DNA of 64,000 bases, from positions 4,192,001 through 4,256,000 of the forward strand of contig CM000152.2 in assembly GCA_000004695.1 (NCBI GenBank). The letters run 5' to 3'. Of this stretch, positions 2,528 to 55,230 are shown piece by piece. The notes beneath the pieces were generated by a model. The model had not been told where the DNA came from. It made no database searches and saw nothing but the letters and a program-made list of their open reading frames with translations. The position numbers and the translations under genes are program-made. Origin of the DNA: Dictyostelium discoideum. Lineage: Eukaryota. Every line of letters starts with the position of its first letter. Within the stretch, counting starts at the first letter, position 1.

Positions 2528-2623
2528 GGGGATGTAGCTCATATGGTAGAGCGTATGGTTTGCATAAACAGCAACGATAATCAGAGTTCCATAAGGTAAA
2601 GGGATCGATACCCTTCTTCTCCA
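2528..2623 (+). tRNA. tRNA-Ala (anticodon UGC) with a ~23-nt intron after position 37. Mature length is 73 nt; no CCA is encoded.
   Basis: GGGGATG acceptor; D arm GCTC-ATATGGTA-GAGC; anticodon stem TATGG/CCATA (2554-2558/2589-2593); loop TTTGCA + T with anticodon TGC; intron approximately 2565..2587. The T arm is AAGGG-ATCGATA-CCCTT and the 3' acceptor CTTCTCC+A. The G3:U70 alanine identity pair is present. One U6-U67 mismatch exists in the acceptor stem, so a pseudogene cannot be excluded. Confidence 0.75.
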
Positions 2624-2900: not shown

Positions 2901-7620
<4,720 letters not shown>

Positions 7621-39979: not shown

Positions 39980-41157
39980 AATAAATACTAATAATTTTTT
40001 TTAAAAAAAAAAAAAAAACAGTAATAAATTATCAGAATTAGAAAATTTTTTATTTGGATATTTTTATAATTTTAGTAAGAAAAATCAAAATAATTCAGAA
40101 CCTGGTGAAGTTGAAAAAGAGTATATACTTGGTAATATTTCTCATTATTATGAAGGTGGATTTGTATTAAATAGGTTTGGAAATAAAGAATTTGCAGATA
40201 TGGCTACAACAATACCTTATAATTATTCAAGAATTCCAATGTATAGAATTGATAAAAGTGATTTACACAATGATAATAATAATAATAGCGATGAAAATGA
40301 CCCAAATACTGAAGCTGAAAAGAAATCATTTAGTGGAATTTGTTTCAACTGTTCACAAAAGGGTCATTCTGTAAATGATTGTCCTTATACATATTCATAT
40401 AAAAGAGTTCAACAAAATAGAAAAGCATTCTTAGAAAGTAAACCAACAAAGCAAGTATTAGTAATAAAAATAAAAATAAAAATAAAAATAAGAATAAAAT
40501 AATAATAAAAATTTATTAATAATAAAATAAATAATTAGCGAAAGATATTTCTTAACAATTGAAAAAAATGAAAAGAAATTAAATGAATCACTGCAACAAC
40601 AACAACAACAACAACAACAACAGCCACACGATCTACCACCTCCTCCCCCTCCACCATCATCTCCTCCCCCTCCACCCCCACCATCACCTCCCAGAGTGCC
40701 ATTTCTACCTCCTCCCCCTCCTCCTCCTCCTCTTTCCCCCCCTCATTCTTCTTCAAGTTCAACTTCTACTACTATCACACCAACCGAATCAACATCAACA
40801 TCTTCATCCGCATCCACATCCACATCGACCTCAACATCAACATCAACATCAACATCGAAAAATAATAATAATAATAATATAGAAACTAAAAATACAACAT
40901 CATTATCAGAATCAATAATTAGTGGTGATGATATTGTTGTTGAATTTGATCCATCAAAGAATAAAAATCTTTTTATACAAAATACAAAAAGTACACAAAA
41001 AGAAGAAACTACAGAATCAAATAAATTTCAAGAAAATGAAGATTATATTGAATTTCCAAGAGACCTTTTTGAACAAGCAGAAAATAAAGAAACTGAAGAA
41101 TCATACTATAAAACAAATTATGATCCATCATTCTTTACAAATTTTATAAATTCAAAA

Positions 41158-41211
<54 letters not shown>

Positions 41212-41727
41212 TTTAATAACTATAATAATAATTTCAATAATTATAATAATGGTAACTATGTTGGTTATAACCAACAGTATGGTAACCAAAACTTTAATAG
41301 CAATATGTATGGATTTTATAATGGAAATAATAACATTAATAATTATCCATATGGAAATAATTATAATAATTATGATCATCATAGAAATAATATGTACAAT
41401 AGTAATTATAACAATAGTTATAATAATAATAATAATTTTAATAATTTTAATAAAAATTTTAATGGTTGTGGTGGTTTTGATGATAGAATGAGAAACAATG
41501 ATAGATATAGAGATTTAGAACCTAATAATAATAATAATAATTTTCAACAAACATTACCAACAACAAATTTAAATAAAAATATAATATCACCACCAAAACC
41601 ACCAAAATCGTCAACTATTTCAAATGTAACTACGTCAGTGGTAGTATTAAATCAACCAACTCCTATATCACCACCGCCATCACAAAATGAAGCTGTTGAT
41701 ATGGATACTGAAGATGGGGAATTGTAA
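39396..41727 (+). CDS. CCHC zinc-knuckle protein with a coiled-coil N-terminus, Pro-rich and Ser/Thr-rich segments and a long Asn/Tyr-rich prion-like region. Probably 3 exons: 39396..39908, 40022..40454, 40576..41727.
   Basis: Exon 1 ends ga|GTATGT (39909); its intron holds an (AAATAAAT)n tract and ends in (A)nCAG at 40021. Exon 2 is open in frame from 40023 and contains the knuckle CFNCSQKGHSVNDCP (C-x2-C-x4-H-x4-C). A candidate donor CAA|GTATTA at 40455 and acceptor GAAAAG at 40575 are phase-compatible with the ORF that runs from 40531 into ORF 40696..41727 (QQQQQQQQQPHDLPPPPPPSSPPPP...STSTSTSTS...NNYNNGNYVGYNQQYGNQNF...DMDTEDGEL-stop). The third junction is the least certain. Confidence 0.45.
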
Positions 41728-41859
41728 ATAAAATTTAAAATTTAAAATTTAAAATAATTTAGTTTCTTTTTATTGTTTTTATTGTTTTTAAATCTTTTTT
41801 AATTTTAAAATTTTGTGTTATTGTTTTATTGTTTTATTGTTTATGTTTTAAATCTTGAA

Positions 41860-41960
41860 AACCAGTATCAAAACAATGTAAATAAGAGAATTACCAGCAA
41901 GTATCCAAACTATTACTTGCTTTAATACGTTTATAACCAATGACCCAGGGTGAAGATATT
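41860..41960 (-). pseudogene. Decayed duplicate of the 3' end of the Nudix gene (the true copy is at 42818..42920).
   Basis: 41860-41960 (aaaccagtatcaaaacaatgtaaataagagaattaccagcaagta...ctttaatacgtttataaccaatgacc) aligns by eye, with many substitutions, to 42818-42920 (aaatcagtatcagaaccatgataaacaaaagaattaccagcacgta...tttcatacctttataaccattgaaac). It has no open frame. Confidence 0.55.
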
Positions 41961-42569
41961 TTTCACAAACTGTAATTCGTGAAGTTTGGGAAGAGCAGAT
42001 ACTCATACTGAGTTTGTTAGCATTCATTAGAAAATGTGGTGTCCATTTACAAGTTGAATCTGTTAAAGTTTCCAAATTATTAGATGATGAATTTCTCAAC
42101 CTCAAAAACATTGACCAAAATGAAATATTATATTACATATATATCAAATATAATTGTAATGGTTGTTCAGGAAATATCACAATATCTATTTTCGACCTCC
42201 TTTATTATCAAAGCTAAATGTCCAAAATGTGCAAGAAAAAGAGGAGAACATCAAATGATTTAAACAAATACCACTTGAAGAACATAAGTCCAATAGATCT
42301 TCAAGAACATCAAATATCATGGAGCACCATTAAAAGCAATAATATCATGAAAACGGATGATGGCCAACAACTTTTAAATTTTGTAATGGCAATCAAAGTG
42401 TATATTAAGAGATACATTGGATTCTATTGAAAACAAATATGCCATTTATAATAAAACAAACAAATGAATTGGCAACCTTTTTATTTGATAATCCATTGGG
42501 AAGAATAAGCCATATCTTATTAAATGACCATTTTATTTTTCAATTAAATGACGTTGAAAGAGTTACTAC

Positions 42570-42800
42570 TAAATAATTTAATTCAAATTTAAATAAAAAT
42601 ATAATACCACCAAAAACCACAAACTATTTCAAATGTAACTAACTACAACTAAATCCTATATCACCATCATCATCATCATCATAATCACAAAATGAAGCTG
42701 TACAGAAGATGGAAAATTGTAAATAAAATTTAAATTTTAAAATCTAAAATCTAAAATAATTTATTTTTGTTTTATTGTTTTTATTGTTTTTATTGTTTTT
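42570..42800 (+). pseudogene. Decayed duplicate of the last coding segment and 3' UTR of the zinc-knuckle gene (the true copy is at 41551..41860).
   Basis: aatttaaataaaaatataataccaccaaaaaccacaaactatttcaaatgtaacta...tcaccatcatcatca..cacaaaatgaagctgt..gaagatgg..aattgtaaataaaatttaaa repeats 41575-41760 with indels and loses the reading frame. The same ttattgtttttattgtttt tail follows both copies. Confidence 0.55.
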
Positions 42801-43929
42801 ATTGTTTTAAATCTTCAAAATCAGTATCAGAACCATGATAAACAAAAGAATTACCAGCACGTAAACTATTGGCGACAGCACTTGCTTTCATACCTTTATA
42901 ACCATTGAAACAATAATCATAAGCTAATCTTGAAACTGATTTTTGAAGTGGGAATGGTGTTTCGATCTCTGTGAATTCTTTTACAGGTGCCCATTTACAT
43001 TGAGCGATTTCAGATGGATCACTATTGATTTCACTTGACAACGGCTTAAGAGCACAGATAAAATATATGTCACCTCTGTTAAAGGCATAGTTGTGCAACT
43101 GACGAAGGCCAAGAATGCTCACAAACTCAGTACGAATACCTGTCTCTTCCCAAACTTCACGAACTGCAGTCTCGCAAATATCTTCACCTGGGTCGTTGGC
43201 TCCACCTGGTATCTTCCATTTATCAGGTCTTTGCTTCTCAGTGATCAATAGAATTTCATTACGGTCATTAATTACAACACCACCACAACCAATGAAATGA
43301 GAGGTATAGTGTGGTAATTTATTTGGTTCCCCGATTGGTAGCCATTTAGTCAACATTATGTAATTGGATTGGCAATGATGAAATGAGAATCCATTCTCTA
43401 CCAATGTTGGAATTAATATTGAATTAGTTTCTGGTATCTCTATCCAAATGCCTCTACGTTTATTCTCTGTCCAAAATTGTAAACTATTTTTAATGATTTC
43501 TTTAAATTTACTAACACTATCTTCCCCACTACCCTTTGGGTATTGTGTTGTATCTTTAACAATAATACCATCGAAAATATCTGGAATACCAGCTAATATA
43601 CCCTTTTCTATTAATTTAGGATCATTATATTTTTCATTTAATTCTATTTTCTTATTATCTAATAATTTACTACTTTCACTCATATTTTTTGTAATTTTTA
43701 ATAAATTTGTTTTTGTTGTTGTTGTTGTTGTTGTTATTGGTTTTGAACAAAAATATCGAATATTATTATTATTACAATTTAATTTAAATTTACTATTATT
43801 ATTTTTATTATTATTATTATTTTTATTATTTTTATTAATAGTATTTATGTTATTACAATTTATTTTTTTATTTATATTGTATTTATTTATAATATTTCTA
43901 AAAATTAAAAATGAAAATTGCGATTTCAT
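42799..43929 (-). CDS. Nudix hydrolase (NUDT6/GFG-like) with an Asn/Lys-rich N-terminal extension.
   Basis: Nudix box GGVVINDRNEILLITEKQRPDKWKIPGGANDPGEDICETAVREVWEETGIRTEF (G-x5-E-x7-REVxEExGI). Continuous 376-aa ORF; the actual start may be the internal Met MSESSKLLDNKK. Confidence 0.7.
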   Translation of the reverse strand: MKSQFSFLIFRNIINKYNINKKINCNNINTINKNNKNNNNNKNNNSKFKLNCNNNNIRYFCSKPITTTTTTTKTNLLKITKNMSESSKLLDNKKIELNEKYNDPKLIEKGILAGIPDIFDGIIVKDTTQYPKGSGEDSVSKFKEIIKNSLQFWTENKRRGIWIEIPETNSILIPTLVENGFSFHHCQSNYIMLTKWLPIGEPNKLPHYTSHFIGCGGVVINDRNEILLITEKQRPDKWKIPGGANDPGEDICETAVREVWEETGIRTEFVSILGLRQLHNYAFNRGDIYFICALKPLSSEINSDPSEIAQCKWAPVKEFTEIETPFPLQKSVSRLAYDYCFNGYKGMKASAVANSLRAGNSFVYHGSDTDFEDLKQ

Positions 43930-48787: not shown

Positions 48788-48858
48788 GCGTATGTGGTCT
48801 AGTGGTATGATAGCTGCCTTCCAAGCAGTTGAACCGGGTTCGATTCCCGGCATACGCA
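48788..48858 (+). tRNA. tRNA-Gly (anticodon UCC), 71 nt, no intron.
   Basis: GCGTATGTGGTCTAGTGGTATGATAGCTGCCTTCCAAGCAGTTGAACCGGGTTCGATTCCCGGCATACGCA. It is near-identical to eukaryotic tRNA-Gly-UCC (established sequence family) and has the A and B boxes and the T-loop GGTTCGATTCC. Confidence 0.9.
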
Positions 48859-55159: not shown

Positions 55160-55230
55160 TGCGTATGCCGGGAATCGAACCCGGTTCAACTGCTTGGAAG
55201 GCAGCTATCATACCACTAGACCACATACGC
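55160..55230 (-). tRNA. tRNA-Gly (anticodon UCC), second copy in inverted orientation.
   Basis: Exact reverse complement of the 48788..48858 tRNA (TGCGTATGCCGGGAATCGAACCCGGTTCAACTGCTTGGAAGGCAGCTATCATACCACTAGACCACATACGC). Confidence 0.9.

Follow-up and report, generated by a model that had tools for sequence, protein, structure and literature searches.

The intergenic gap between a zinc-knuckle gene (plus strand) and a Nudix hydrolase gene (minus strand) of Dictyostelium discoideum contains a tandem segmental duplication with a junction insertion and not a plain tandem duplication. This structure is probably a neutral relic of a single complex event in the D. discoideum stem lineage that combined duplication with insertion. 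It lies in a window of 64,000 nucleotides, the whole stretch of DNA analysed here, which was compared with the orthologous loci of two D. discoideum-like isolates (L001 and L002), D. citrinum (L003), and D. purpureum (L004). For annotation, none of the three dead fragments of genes in the ~1.07-kb gap, nor the orphan insert, should be called an exon or a gene. The locus would not surprise specialists and its value is chiefly that of an annotation and an example: a clean, datable case in which a compact, AT-rich genome gains DNA by duplication plus filler while both genes remain unharmed.

Two live gene ends and their decayed copies

Both genes that converge on the gap are intact. The zinc-knuckle gene (ORF 40696..41727, with its TAA stop codon at 41725-41727) has a zf-CCHC domain in an upstream exon (Pfam, 4.5e-5), and its live tail is 97-98% identical to the L001 and L002 orthologues. 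The Nudix gene encodes PF18290 (2.3e-24) and PF00293 (1.6e-21) domains and carries the Nudix box (GX5EX7REUXEEXGU, with the sequence ...GGANDPGEDICETAVREVWEETGI) as a member of the family with an intact fold; it likely starts at the Met at 43682 or, as annotated orthologues have it, at 43929. Its protein shares 98% amino-acid identity with the D. discoideum isolate proteins P0001 and P0002, and its live tail is 100% identical to those of L001 and L002. Neither this protein, as encoded in the window, nor three ORFs of the spacer between the gene ends had an exact match in a collection of 15 billion proteins. The features of the region are listed in Table 1.

Table 1. Features between and around the two convergent gene ends (positions in the window)
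Feature	Position	Strand	Basis
Copy A, block 1: live zinc-knuckle 3' end	41533..41727	+	ORF, orthologues, BLAST to copy B
Copy A, block 2: AT-rich gap, presumed zinc-knuckle 3' UTR	41728..41840		Sequence composition
Copy A, block 3: dead Nudix tail, last ~35 codons	41841..41943	-	BLAST, alignment
Junction J1: CCAATGA	41937..41943		Direct and inverted BLAST matches overlap exactly here
Inverted dead Nudix-box copy	41937..42036	+	BLAST, alignments
Orphan filler, 535 bp	42037..42571	+	No homolog or local template
Copy B, block 1: dead zinc-knuckle tail	42572..42722	+	BLAST, deletion shared with L001 and L002
Copy B, block 2: AT-rich gap, presumed Nudix 3' UTR	42723..42798		Sequence composition
Live Nudix hydrolase gene (42799-42908 = copy B, block 3)	42799..43929	-	ORF, PF18290 and PF00293

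When positions 41400-43800 were compared with the window by self-BLAST, the best non-self match was a direct repeat of 41564-41943 and 42584-42908 (68.6% identity over 392 columns, 171 bits, E 4.7e-44); the runners-up were matches in low-complexity AAT sequence and scored no more than 84 bits. BLAST with low-complexity masking resolved this repeat into two blocks of the zinc-knuckle tail (41564-41632 against 42584-42641, 81% identity, E 3e-14; 41679-41727 against 42684-42722, E 2e-4) and one of the Nudix tail (41850-41943 against 42809-42908, 77% identity over 104 columns, E 9e-18), whereas the next-best match to these blocks in the rest of the window had an E value of at least 0.002. In both copies (41533-41943 and 42572-42908) the zinc-knuckle tail, an AT-rich gap, and the Nudix tail follow one another in the same order and orientation, which bears out the proposal of the initial annotation that a stretch covering both convergent gene ends had been duplicated in tandem. 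Copy A joins the live zinc-knuckle end to a dead Nudix end and copy B a dead zinc-knuckle end to the live Nudix end. Firm homology between them begins at 41564 in copy A and at 42584 in copy B, although comparison with D. citrinum suggests that the copies probably start at ~41533 and ~42572, respectively; from start to start, the unit measures about 1020 bp. The order of pieces that had been claimed for the region is real, and the coordinates given for them were right to about 10-30 bp.

An extremely AT-rich genome with short repeats yields hundreds of weak self-matches, and the similarity might in principle have been confined to A/T runs or attgtttt repeats, or have come from an assembly artefact. 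Chance and artefact together have, however, a probability next to nil and are refuted by the masked block matches and by a shared diagnostic deletion. Because the matches lie in unique sequence (masked blocks with E 3e-14 to 9e-18), similarity of low-complexity sequence alone does not account for them, and across all unique blocks of the locus E values range from 3e-14 to 7e-20 against a background of at least 0.002. Two independent assemblies hold orthologous remnants that share the diagnostic deletion, and a collapsed or duplicated assembly is dismissed because the copies differ by 20-25%.

Decay has affected whichever half of each copy has no gene body attached to it; its signs are frameshifts, a deletion of 10 bp, an expanded CAT repeat, and a lowered GC content. 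The dead Nudix tail begins at the equivalent of the stop codon (~41841), matches 42799-42908 of the live gene, and has its frame broken by indels. The dead zinc-knuckle tail, which ends in a stop-equivalent TAA at 42720-42722, carries the 10-bp deletion, the CAT expansion, and several further deletions, and is 74% identical to the live tail. The identity of 74-77% between dead and live tails agrees with the earlier claim that the redundant halves had decayed, and the dead copies, at 27-28% GC, fall below the live zinc-knuckle tail (33.5%). The AT-rich gap of copy A is 9% GC, with TAAATAAAATTTAAAATTT and ATTGTTTT repeats, and that of copy B 7.7% GC. Inspection of the sequence revealed a poly(A) tract at neither end of either copy. 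A processed pseudogene was rejected as an origin: the copies lack poly(A), adjoin their parents, and take in the gap together with the end of the gene next door, in antisense.

The joint and its filler

Copies A and B do not meet directly head to tail, as ~628 bp of filler (41944-42571) intervenes. Since it is single-copy and absent from the arrangement found in D. citrinum (a gap of 61 bp) and D. purpureum (90 bp), this filler is a junction insert placed between the copies, outside the duplicated unit, and not a part of that unit as initially annotated. Its description as unique sequence holds for 42037-42571, for which no homolog was found, but not for 41937-42036. The latter is the reverse complement of 43199-43100 (83.3% identity over 90 nt, BLAST E 7e-20), a template located inside the live Nudix gene ~1.2 kb away, so that this part of the junction insert was copied, in inverted orientation, from neighbouring DNA. 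The piece (...DPGEDI..REVWEE..TEFVSI...) contains four small indels and an in-frame stop. Both Nudix fragments, 41841-41943 with 35 codons and 41937-42036 with ~33, are broken by frameshifts and a stop and lack an intact fold; they are relics and not members of the family.

At junction J1, the Nudix tail in antisense gives way to the Nudix-box fragment in sense orientation; the two other junctions of the filler, J2 and J3, lie at about 42036/42037 and 42571/42572. CCAATGA at this point compares with CCATTGA in the live tail and CCAACGA in the Nudix box, five of the seven bases being common to all and only CCA contiguous; as far as can be judged from the letters, such an imperfect microhomology could, after this much decay, be a coincidence. 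The inverted piece retains 80-83% identity with its source and the dead tails 74-77% with theirs, and this comparable divergence suggests similar ages. These observations bear on a two-step history, in which a plain tandem duplication, produced by unequal exchange or by slippage of replication at short AT-rich repeats, was followed later by one or more unrelated insertions at the joint. Such a history would give an anatomy identical to the one observed; ATTGTTTT and TAAAAT repeats flank the region and might have mediated misalignment, and the filler comprises at least two pieces that differ in origin. Against it, the filler occupies precisely the interval that separates the two copies, with no stray sequence of either copy on its wrong side, the inverted piece shares 41937-41943 with copy A and is thereby joined to its last base, as if made during joining, and its divergence resembles that of the dead tails as expected for like ages. 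We consider two separate steps rather unlikely.

The remaining 535 bp of the filler have an exon-like GC content of 26.7%, against 8-9% in the adjoining gaps. One plus-strand frame is open over 42014-42430 and a second over 42427-42576. The frame that holds REVWEE extends over 158 codons interrupted by one stop (P 0.0004-0.002 against shuffles) and its orphan part, likewise with one stop, over 130 codons (P ~0.004-0.018), values that depend on a one-stop-allowed criterion picked post hoc with the data already seen. In-frame stops occur at 42215-42217 and ahead of REVWEE, ATG is absent from the first 90 codons of the frame, and the codon-usage signal is flat (score ~0, compared with +0.3 to +0.5 in the neighbouring genes). 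Stop-codon statistics are suggestive of coding potential, whereas codon usage is not.

Protein searches did not provide a relative. A frame-corrected 186-aa translation of the spacer had no match at E <= 10 in a word-indexed protein search, and the concatenated remaining pieces of six-frame ORFs (at least 22 aa) matched no protein. With phmmer, a 138-aa frame retrieved a single match (P0039, E 2.9e-4) among 1.84 billion representatives, which we treated as spurious because it consists of eight repeat copies aligning to one 29-aa stretch with 28% identity. No Pfam match was found in any frame; origin from another protein-coding gene is unsupported by the protein searches and Pfam. Rfam searches returned sub-threshold noise only, with no rRNA or tRNA family match, so that a structured RNA or an rRNA (nuclear rDNA or mitochondrial) was rejected as well. 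The empty six-frame protein searches and the absence of an rRNA or tRNA match also speak, indirectly, against a nuclear copy of mitochondrial DNA (numt) as filler. The suggestion that the spacer may be a pseudogene fragment accordingly stays unconfirmed: exon-like GC content and an open frame speak for it, and flat codon usage and the empty protein, Pfam, and Rfam searches against it. Nothing supports the interrupted ORFs at 42014, 42084, and 42218 or the ORF 41848..42111 on the antisense strand.

Nor did DNA comparisons reveal a source. No template for 42037-42571 was found anywhere in the 64 kb of the window or among the four orthologous loci (11-13 kb each), and the window has no second copy of it. 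A mosaic of short local templates was rejected, as the spacer shares 64 12-mers with the rest of the window, against 48 in shuffles (maximum 100), and the Nudix-box piece alone stands out. We also rejected the rest of a decayed Nudix gene, brought in by a larger unit or an in-place inversion, since past 42036 the alignment is noise in both orientations, and tblastx gave no signal; a 13-nt match of GGTGTCCATTTAC (42037) to 42986 is, by a rough estimate, within chance expectation. It is highly improbable that the 535-bp segment is captured DNA whose source was lost from the nuclear genome or was never in it.

Two readings give the spacer an identity of its own. A mobile element, or else a piece of organellar or foreign DNA that was captured, with the flanking repeats as its target-site duplication, would explain a single-copy insert between direct host repeats and a GC content well above that of the adjoining gaps. 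Nevertheless, the flanking repeat measures 340-410 bp instead of the 2-15 bp usual for transposon insertions, and we know of no transposon target duplication near that size. Terminal inverted, terminal direct, and internal repeats were all sought in the filler and none was found; it has no element ends, no match to a transposase, a reverse transcriptase, or another protein in six frames, no RNA family match, and no further copy in 64 kb, which makes this origin extremely unlikely. An equally small probability is given to a present or recent lineage-specific chimeric orphan gene, in which the 70-codon ORF with an ATG at 42218-42430 may be expressed. The open plus-strand frame and the exon-like GC content favour it; the two stops, the ATG-free first 90 codons, the codon-usage score, the empty homolog searches, the post hoc criterion, and the deletion of 80-90% of the sequence in both sister isolates argue against it. 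It is likewise highly improbable, on a closely related formulation, that the joint fused the REVWEE-containing Nudix-box fragment in frame to >130 codons, for which no relative was found among 1.8 billion representative proteins, to make a lineage-specific gene that was once expressed or whose ORF 42218-42430 still is. If the orphan-gene reading were true, three genomes would document here, with a date, how an orphan gene arose and died.

Relatives and the age of the event

In D. citrinum and D. purpureum the segment is single-copy, and the order of the surrounding genes is conserved (Nudix, zinc-knuckle, BRF1, Pex3). The absence of the duplication from D. citrinum alone dates nothing, because a duplication that is lost when its repeats recombine leaves exactly the single-copy locus behind. 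Both isolates retain the distal dead zinc-knuckle tail, with the identical 10-bp deletion and CAT expansion, and because these two changes are shared the dead stumps of the window, L001, and L002 are orthologous. Remnants of the filler also persist, in the same order and orientation: 134 bp in L001 (7389-7261) and 65 bp in L002 (7323-7262), which were placed by BLAST and direct reading after a three-way MAFFT alignment of the gaps had misplaced them. The gap of copy A is conserved in both isolates up to ~41833, and the gap of copy B is nearly identical there. The dead Nudix tail (41841-41943) is absent from all four compared loci. With orthologous remnants in both isolates, the event must be older than the split between the window and L001/L002, and together with the single-copy outgroups these stumps place it on the D. 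discoideum stem; the dating by related species that had been suggested for this region thus leads to a defined branch.

The inverted fragment refines this placement. It has the discoideum-derived TGG Trp codon (TTC or TTT Phe in D. citrinum and D. purpureum), ACTGAG, and GACCCA, and also keeps the ancestral AGA (CGT in the live discoideum gene) and GTTA. The dating depends on this mixture of derived and ancestral bases, with about three derived sites within a 100-bp fragment, and puts the event part-way along the discoideum stem. For comparison, the Nudix CDS of the window is 97% identical to those of L001 and L002 and 89% to that of D. citrinum, and those of L001 and L002 are 99.4% identical to each other.

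The window holds the fullest surviving version of the scar, and the isolates have lost most of it through nested deletions. Both have deleted 80-90% of the filler and, despite their near-identical Nudix CDS, they already differ in the parts that are gone. The gained DNA is therefore being lost fast at this locus: the gap of 1071 bp in the window is reduced to 352 bp in L001 and 283 bp in L002, and measures 61-90 bp in the unduplicated outgroups.

A probable repair scar and its counterparts

The preferred reading, one event of duplication plus insertion, starts from the arrangement found in the outgroups, with the zinc-knuckle (+) and Nudix (-) genes tail to tail about 60-90 bp apart. A staggered double-strand break or a collapsed replication fork would have spanned ~340-410 bp, namely the gap with the ~65 terminal codons of the zinc-knuckle gene on one side and the ~35 terminal codons of the Nudix gene on the other, and fill-in of both overhangs would thereby have duplicated this segment. 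The ends would then have been joined via filler, of which the first piece may be the 100-bp inverted Nudix-box copy from 1.2 kb away, entered by a template switch through the microhomology CCAWYGA, and the second the ~535 bp with no template in the window or the four orthologous loci. The event was presumably tolerated because each gene kept its body, tail, and native 3' flank, so that nothing was lost. Afterwards, the unattached tail copies and the filler decayed. The anatomy, the single-copy outgroups, the orthology of the stumps, and the date read from shared derived bases are shown by the data, whereas we infer both the single event and the repair pathway; since 535 of the ~635 filler bases lack a source, a single templated event is not demonstrable for most of the insert. 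No present-day function is implied, and constraint is likely limited to the short AT-rich 3' flanks of the live genes. The locus is a real yet ordinary scar, probably of DNA repair, that is being deleted in sister strains.

Single-crossover integration is another known way of producing a direct duplication of a homologous segment around a single-copy insert. In a Campbell-type history, a ~1-kb circle carrying the gene-end segment and the filler would have integrated by one homologous crossover, giving the segment-insert-segment layout seen in the window; the unit of about 1020 bp falls in the size range of small circular DNAs. The chimeric joint of tail, inverted box, and orphan DNA must then have pre-existed in the circle, for which the locus provides no independent evidence, and sequence cannot tell this route from break repair. 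We consider it very unlikely.

Several known systems resemble the single event that we favour. Templated insertions from nearby sequence at deletion junctions are a hallmark of polymerase theta end-joining, and C. elegans brc-1 and brd-1 mutants gather tandem duplications, some with junction insertions; duplications in the BRCA1 mutants range from 1 kb to 1 Mb, and an insertion needed a length of only 5 nt or more to be traced to a template (PMC7368036). As in polymerase theta end-joining and FoSTeS/MMBIR, the locus has a host segment repeated head to tail and, precisely where the copies join, additional DNA that is partly an inverted copy of nearby sequence; the short microhomology at the switch point is imperfect here and may be coincidental. 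FoSTeS/MMBIR, a microhomology-mediated template switching, is comparable to this locus. Unlike in C. elegans, the duplicated segment is only about 0.4 kb, the filler (~635 bp) exceeds it and is mostly devoid of a detectable template, and the pathway is deduced from an old, decayed scar.

Tandem duplications are also said to arise from staggered or adjacent single-strand breaks, as reportedly described by Vaughn and Bennetzen in 2014 and by Schiml et al. Fill-in of long overhangs between offset nicks duplicates the intervening sequence and may trap filler. The segment-filler-segment layout predicted for such 'patch-mediated' duplications in plants matches the locus; those are mostly tens of bases long, whereas the segment here measures 340-410 bp and crosses two gene ends. 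As in partial-gene duplicates, two non-processed fragments adjoin their parents and decay by indels and AT-biased substitution. The usual case differs from this one, in which the fragments are two and complementary, the parents are intact, and a third, inverted fragment lies at the joint; a single event could leave two complementary fragments and intact parents because its breakpoints fell inside two convergent genes. The inverted templated piece hints at template-switching repair in natural Dictyostelium.

Direct repeat across the convergent gene ends

The zinc-knuckle gene and the Nudix hydrolase gene form a convergent pair (see table) in a window that is strongly AT-rich (13-35% GC per kb) and whose coding tracts are rich in AAT. 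The Nudix protein of the window is 98% identical to those of two D. discoideum-labelled assemblies, 92% to that of D. citrinum and 66% to that of D. purpureum; the exact protein was absent from the protein collection upon exact look-up. Self-BLAST of 41400-43800 against the window retrieved as top non-self match a direct repeat, 41564-41943 with 42584-42908 (copies A and B; 68.6% over 392 columns, 171 bits, E 4.7e-44), together with many AAT and AT low-complexity self-matches of at most 84 bits. A segment of ~340-410 bp across both gene ends occurs twice in direct orientation, each copy containing one live tail, attached to its gene body, and one dead tail, a detached and decayed duplicate. 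Hundreds of weak self-matches arise in this region, the majority of them from the long poly-Asn (AAT) tracts within the zinc-knuckle gene, which can swamp dot-plots.

In the gapped alignment, the identity between A and B is located in the unique strings CAAATTTAAATAAAAATATAATAYCACCA, AACTATTTCAAATGTAACTA, ATCACAAAATGAAGCTG, GAAGATGGRRAATTGTAAATAAAATTTAAA, AGAATTACCAGCA and ACTTGCTTTMATACSTTTATAACCAWTGA, and not only in the low-complexity A/T and attgtttt repeats that the initial annotation had named as the possible trivial source of similarity. When each block was searched by itself against the window with low-complexity masking, the zinc-knuckle tail matched its partner with E 3e-14 (plus 2e-4 for its final 49 nt) and the Nudix tail matched its own with E 9e-18, the runner-up matches having E values of at least 0.002. 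Since the identity lies in unique strings and the blocks pair individually, the proposal of two decayed partial gene-end copies left by a local duplication is borne out.

Features of the convergent gene ends and other elements of the window
Feature	Position	Strand	Remarks
Probable intron-containing tRNA gene	2528-2623	+	Rfam tRNA match, 96 nt, 49 bits
Poly-Asn (AAT) tracts	41155-41215, 41400-41560
Zinc-knuckle gene	ends 41727	+	CCHC zinc knuckle in upstream exon
Copy A	41533/41564-41943		live zinc-knuckle tail, AT-rich gap, dead Nudix tail
Antisense ORF	41848-42111	-	87 codons
Inverted Nudix-box fragment	41937-42036
Orphan segment	42037-42571		535 bp, 26.7% GC
Copy B	42572/42584-42908		dead zinc-knuckle tail, AT-rich gap, live Nudix tail
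Nudix hydrolase ORF	42799..43929	-	PF18290 2.3e-24, PF00293 1.6e-21
Nudix box variable position	~43150-43158	-	REV-W-EE
tRNA-Gly(UCC)	48788-48858	+
tRNA-Gly(UCC)	55160-55230	-

Junction filler and possible mechanism

A single-copy filler of ~630 bp sits exactly at the joint between A and B. The filler opens with 100 bp that repeat, in inverted orientation, a sequence 1.2 kb distant: self-BLAST aligns 41937-42025 with the complementary strand of 43199-43113 (83.3% over 90 nt; E 7e-20 when searched alone), and the similarity extends to ~42036 once D. citrinum and D. purpureum are aligned too. The live gene's Nudix-box region (…DPGEDI…REVWEE…TEFVSI…) is the source, and the fragment differs from it by four small indels and one stop. 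The spacer is therefore not wholly unique, as had been supposed. While the core idea of a duplication stands, the spacer does not belong to the duplicated unit but fills its junction. The feature is real, and its anatomy gains a third gene fragment, in inverted orientation. An antisense ORF that spans the inverted fragment and the dead copy of the Nudix tail matches Pfam only below threshold (GCSF, E 0.053), is absent from the protein collection and is most likely due to chance.

The direct (copy A) and inverted matches overlap at 41937-41943 (CCAATGA), where the live Nudix tail has CCATTGA and the Nudix-box region CCAACGA, which suggests a switch within an imperfect 7-nt microhomology. Staggered nicks are reportedly a route to tandem duplications. 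Here, a single repair episode, at a collapsed fork or a staggered break, probably duplicated the segment by overhang fill-in, the ends then being joined following at least one template switch. In C. elegans, polymerase-theta end joining is associated with insertions at tandem-duplication junctions and templated insertions at deletion junctions (PMC7368036). The feature is a fresh example of a well-known type of mutational scar. For the same joint, a two-step history is less likely than a single event, and single-crossover integration of a small circle very improbable.

The rest of the filler, the orphan segment, resembles nothing elsewhere in the window by BLASTN or tblastx, and shares no excess of 12-mers with it (64 versus 48 in shuffles). 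We found in it neither terminal nor internal repeats and no Rfam or Pfam family. The insertion of a mobile element is unlikely, as element features are absent and the flanking repeat is much longer than such an insertion would leave. Translated in six frames, the segment had no protein homologue in two word-indexed searches or in an exhaustive phmmer search against 1.84 billion representatives; a lone phmmer match was dismissed as a repeat artefact. One plus-strand frame runs for 130 codons interrupted by a single stop (compared with shuffles, P 0.004-0.018), or 158 codons including the Nudix-box piece (P 0.0004-0.002). The GC content of the segment is exon-like for this genome (zinc-knuckle tail 33.5%, Nudix CDS 34.2%, adjoining gaps 8-9%), and its codon-usage score is ~0, compared with +0.3 to +0.5 in the neighbouring genes; taken together, these signs of coding potential are ambiguous. 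Expression evidence is needed before any ORF in 41728-42798 is annotated as a gene.

Age and erosion of the duplication

We compared the orthologous loci of two D. discoideum-labelled isolates (L001 and L002; GCA_054859355.1, GCA_054859385.1), D. citrinum (L003; GCA_054859145.1) and D. purpureum (L004), all four with the same gene order as the window (Nudix, zinc-knuckle gene, BRF1, Pex3). The stop-to-stop distance of the convergent pair is 1071 bp in the window, 352 bp in L001, 283 bp in L002, 61 bp in D. citrinum and 90 bp in D. purpureum. In the last two species each tail is single copy and there is no spacer, which is the ancestral state, and a single D. citrinum segment (7034-7381) aligns with copy A up to 41943 and equally with copy B starting at 42572.

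Nudix CDS identity to the window is 97% for L001/L002, 89% for D. citrinum and 71% for D. purpureum. The REVWEE of the inverted fragment has the discoideum-derived TGG (Trp) in place of the TTC/TTT (Phe) of D. citrinum and D. purpureum; the fragment also has the derived ACTGAG and GACCCA, and it retains ancestral bases since replaced in the live discoideum gene (AGA versus CGT; GTTA). Such a mixture places the event part-way along the discoideum stem, a date consistent with dead copies being 74-80% identical to live ones; it postdates the separation from D. citrinum and precedes by a wide margin the divergence of the window and L001/L002. The W for F at this variable position of the Nudix catalytic motif, also found in L001 and L002, is a lineage-specific change.

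L001 and L002 are intermediate: their live zinc-knuckle tail is followed by ~100 bp of AT-rich flank, a short filler piece (L001 7389-7261, 73% identical to window 42071-42188; L002 7323-7262, 85% to 42053-42114), the distal dead zinc-knuckle tail and the Nudix flank. The dead zinc-knuckle tails of window, L001 and L002 have in common a 10-bp deletion (TTGATATGGA) and a CAT-repeat expansion found in no live tail, which indicates that they are orthologous and stem from one event. Because the window additionally keeps the proximal portion of its dead zinc-knuckle tail as well as a dead Nudix tail, both where a duplication predicts them, its form is older and fuller, L001 and L002 having lost DNA by nested deletions. 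Although the Nudix CDS of these isolates is 99.4% identical, their spacer remnants differ in length and deletion joints, so erosion is recent and continuing. Indel turnover in the gap is very fast, as seen in the remnants L001 7261-7389 and L002 7262-7323. In L001 the live zinc-knuckle tail (~7550-7560) has an in-frame gap of 21 bp (7 codons) relative to the window and L002.

Both genes kept their own tail and AT-rich 3' flank and so escaped damage, and the detached tails have lost constraint. Nothing points to a function for these relics, given that their frames are broken and most of the structure is gone from the sister clade.

tRNA genes

The probable intron-containing tRNA gene scored above the Rfam threshold and was not reported by ARAGORN. 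The two tRNA-Gly(UCC) genes lie 6.3 kb apart in opposite orientation, and their similarity reaches ~60 bp into both flanks (195 bp, 87.7%).
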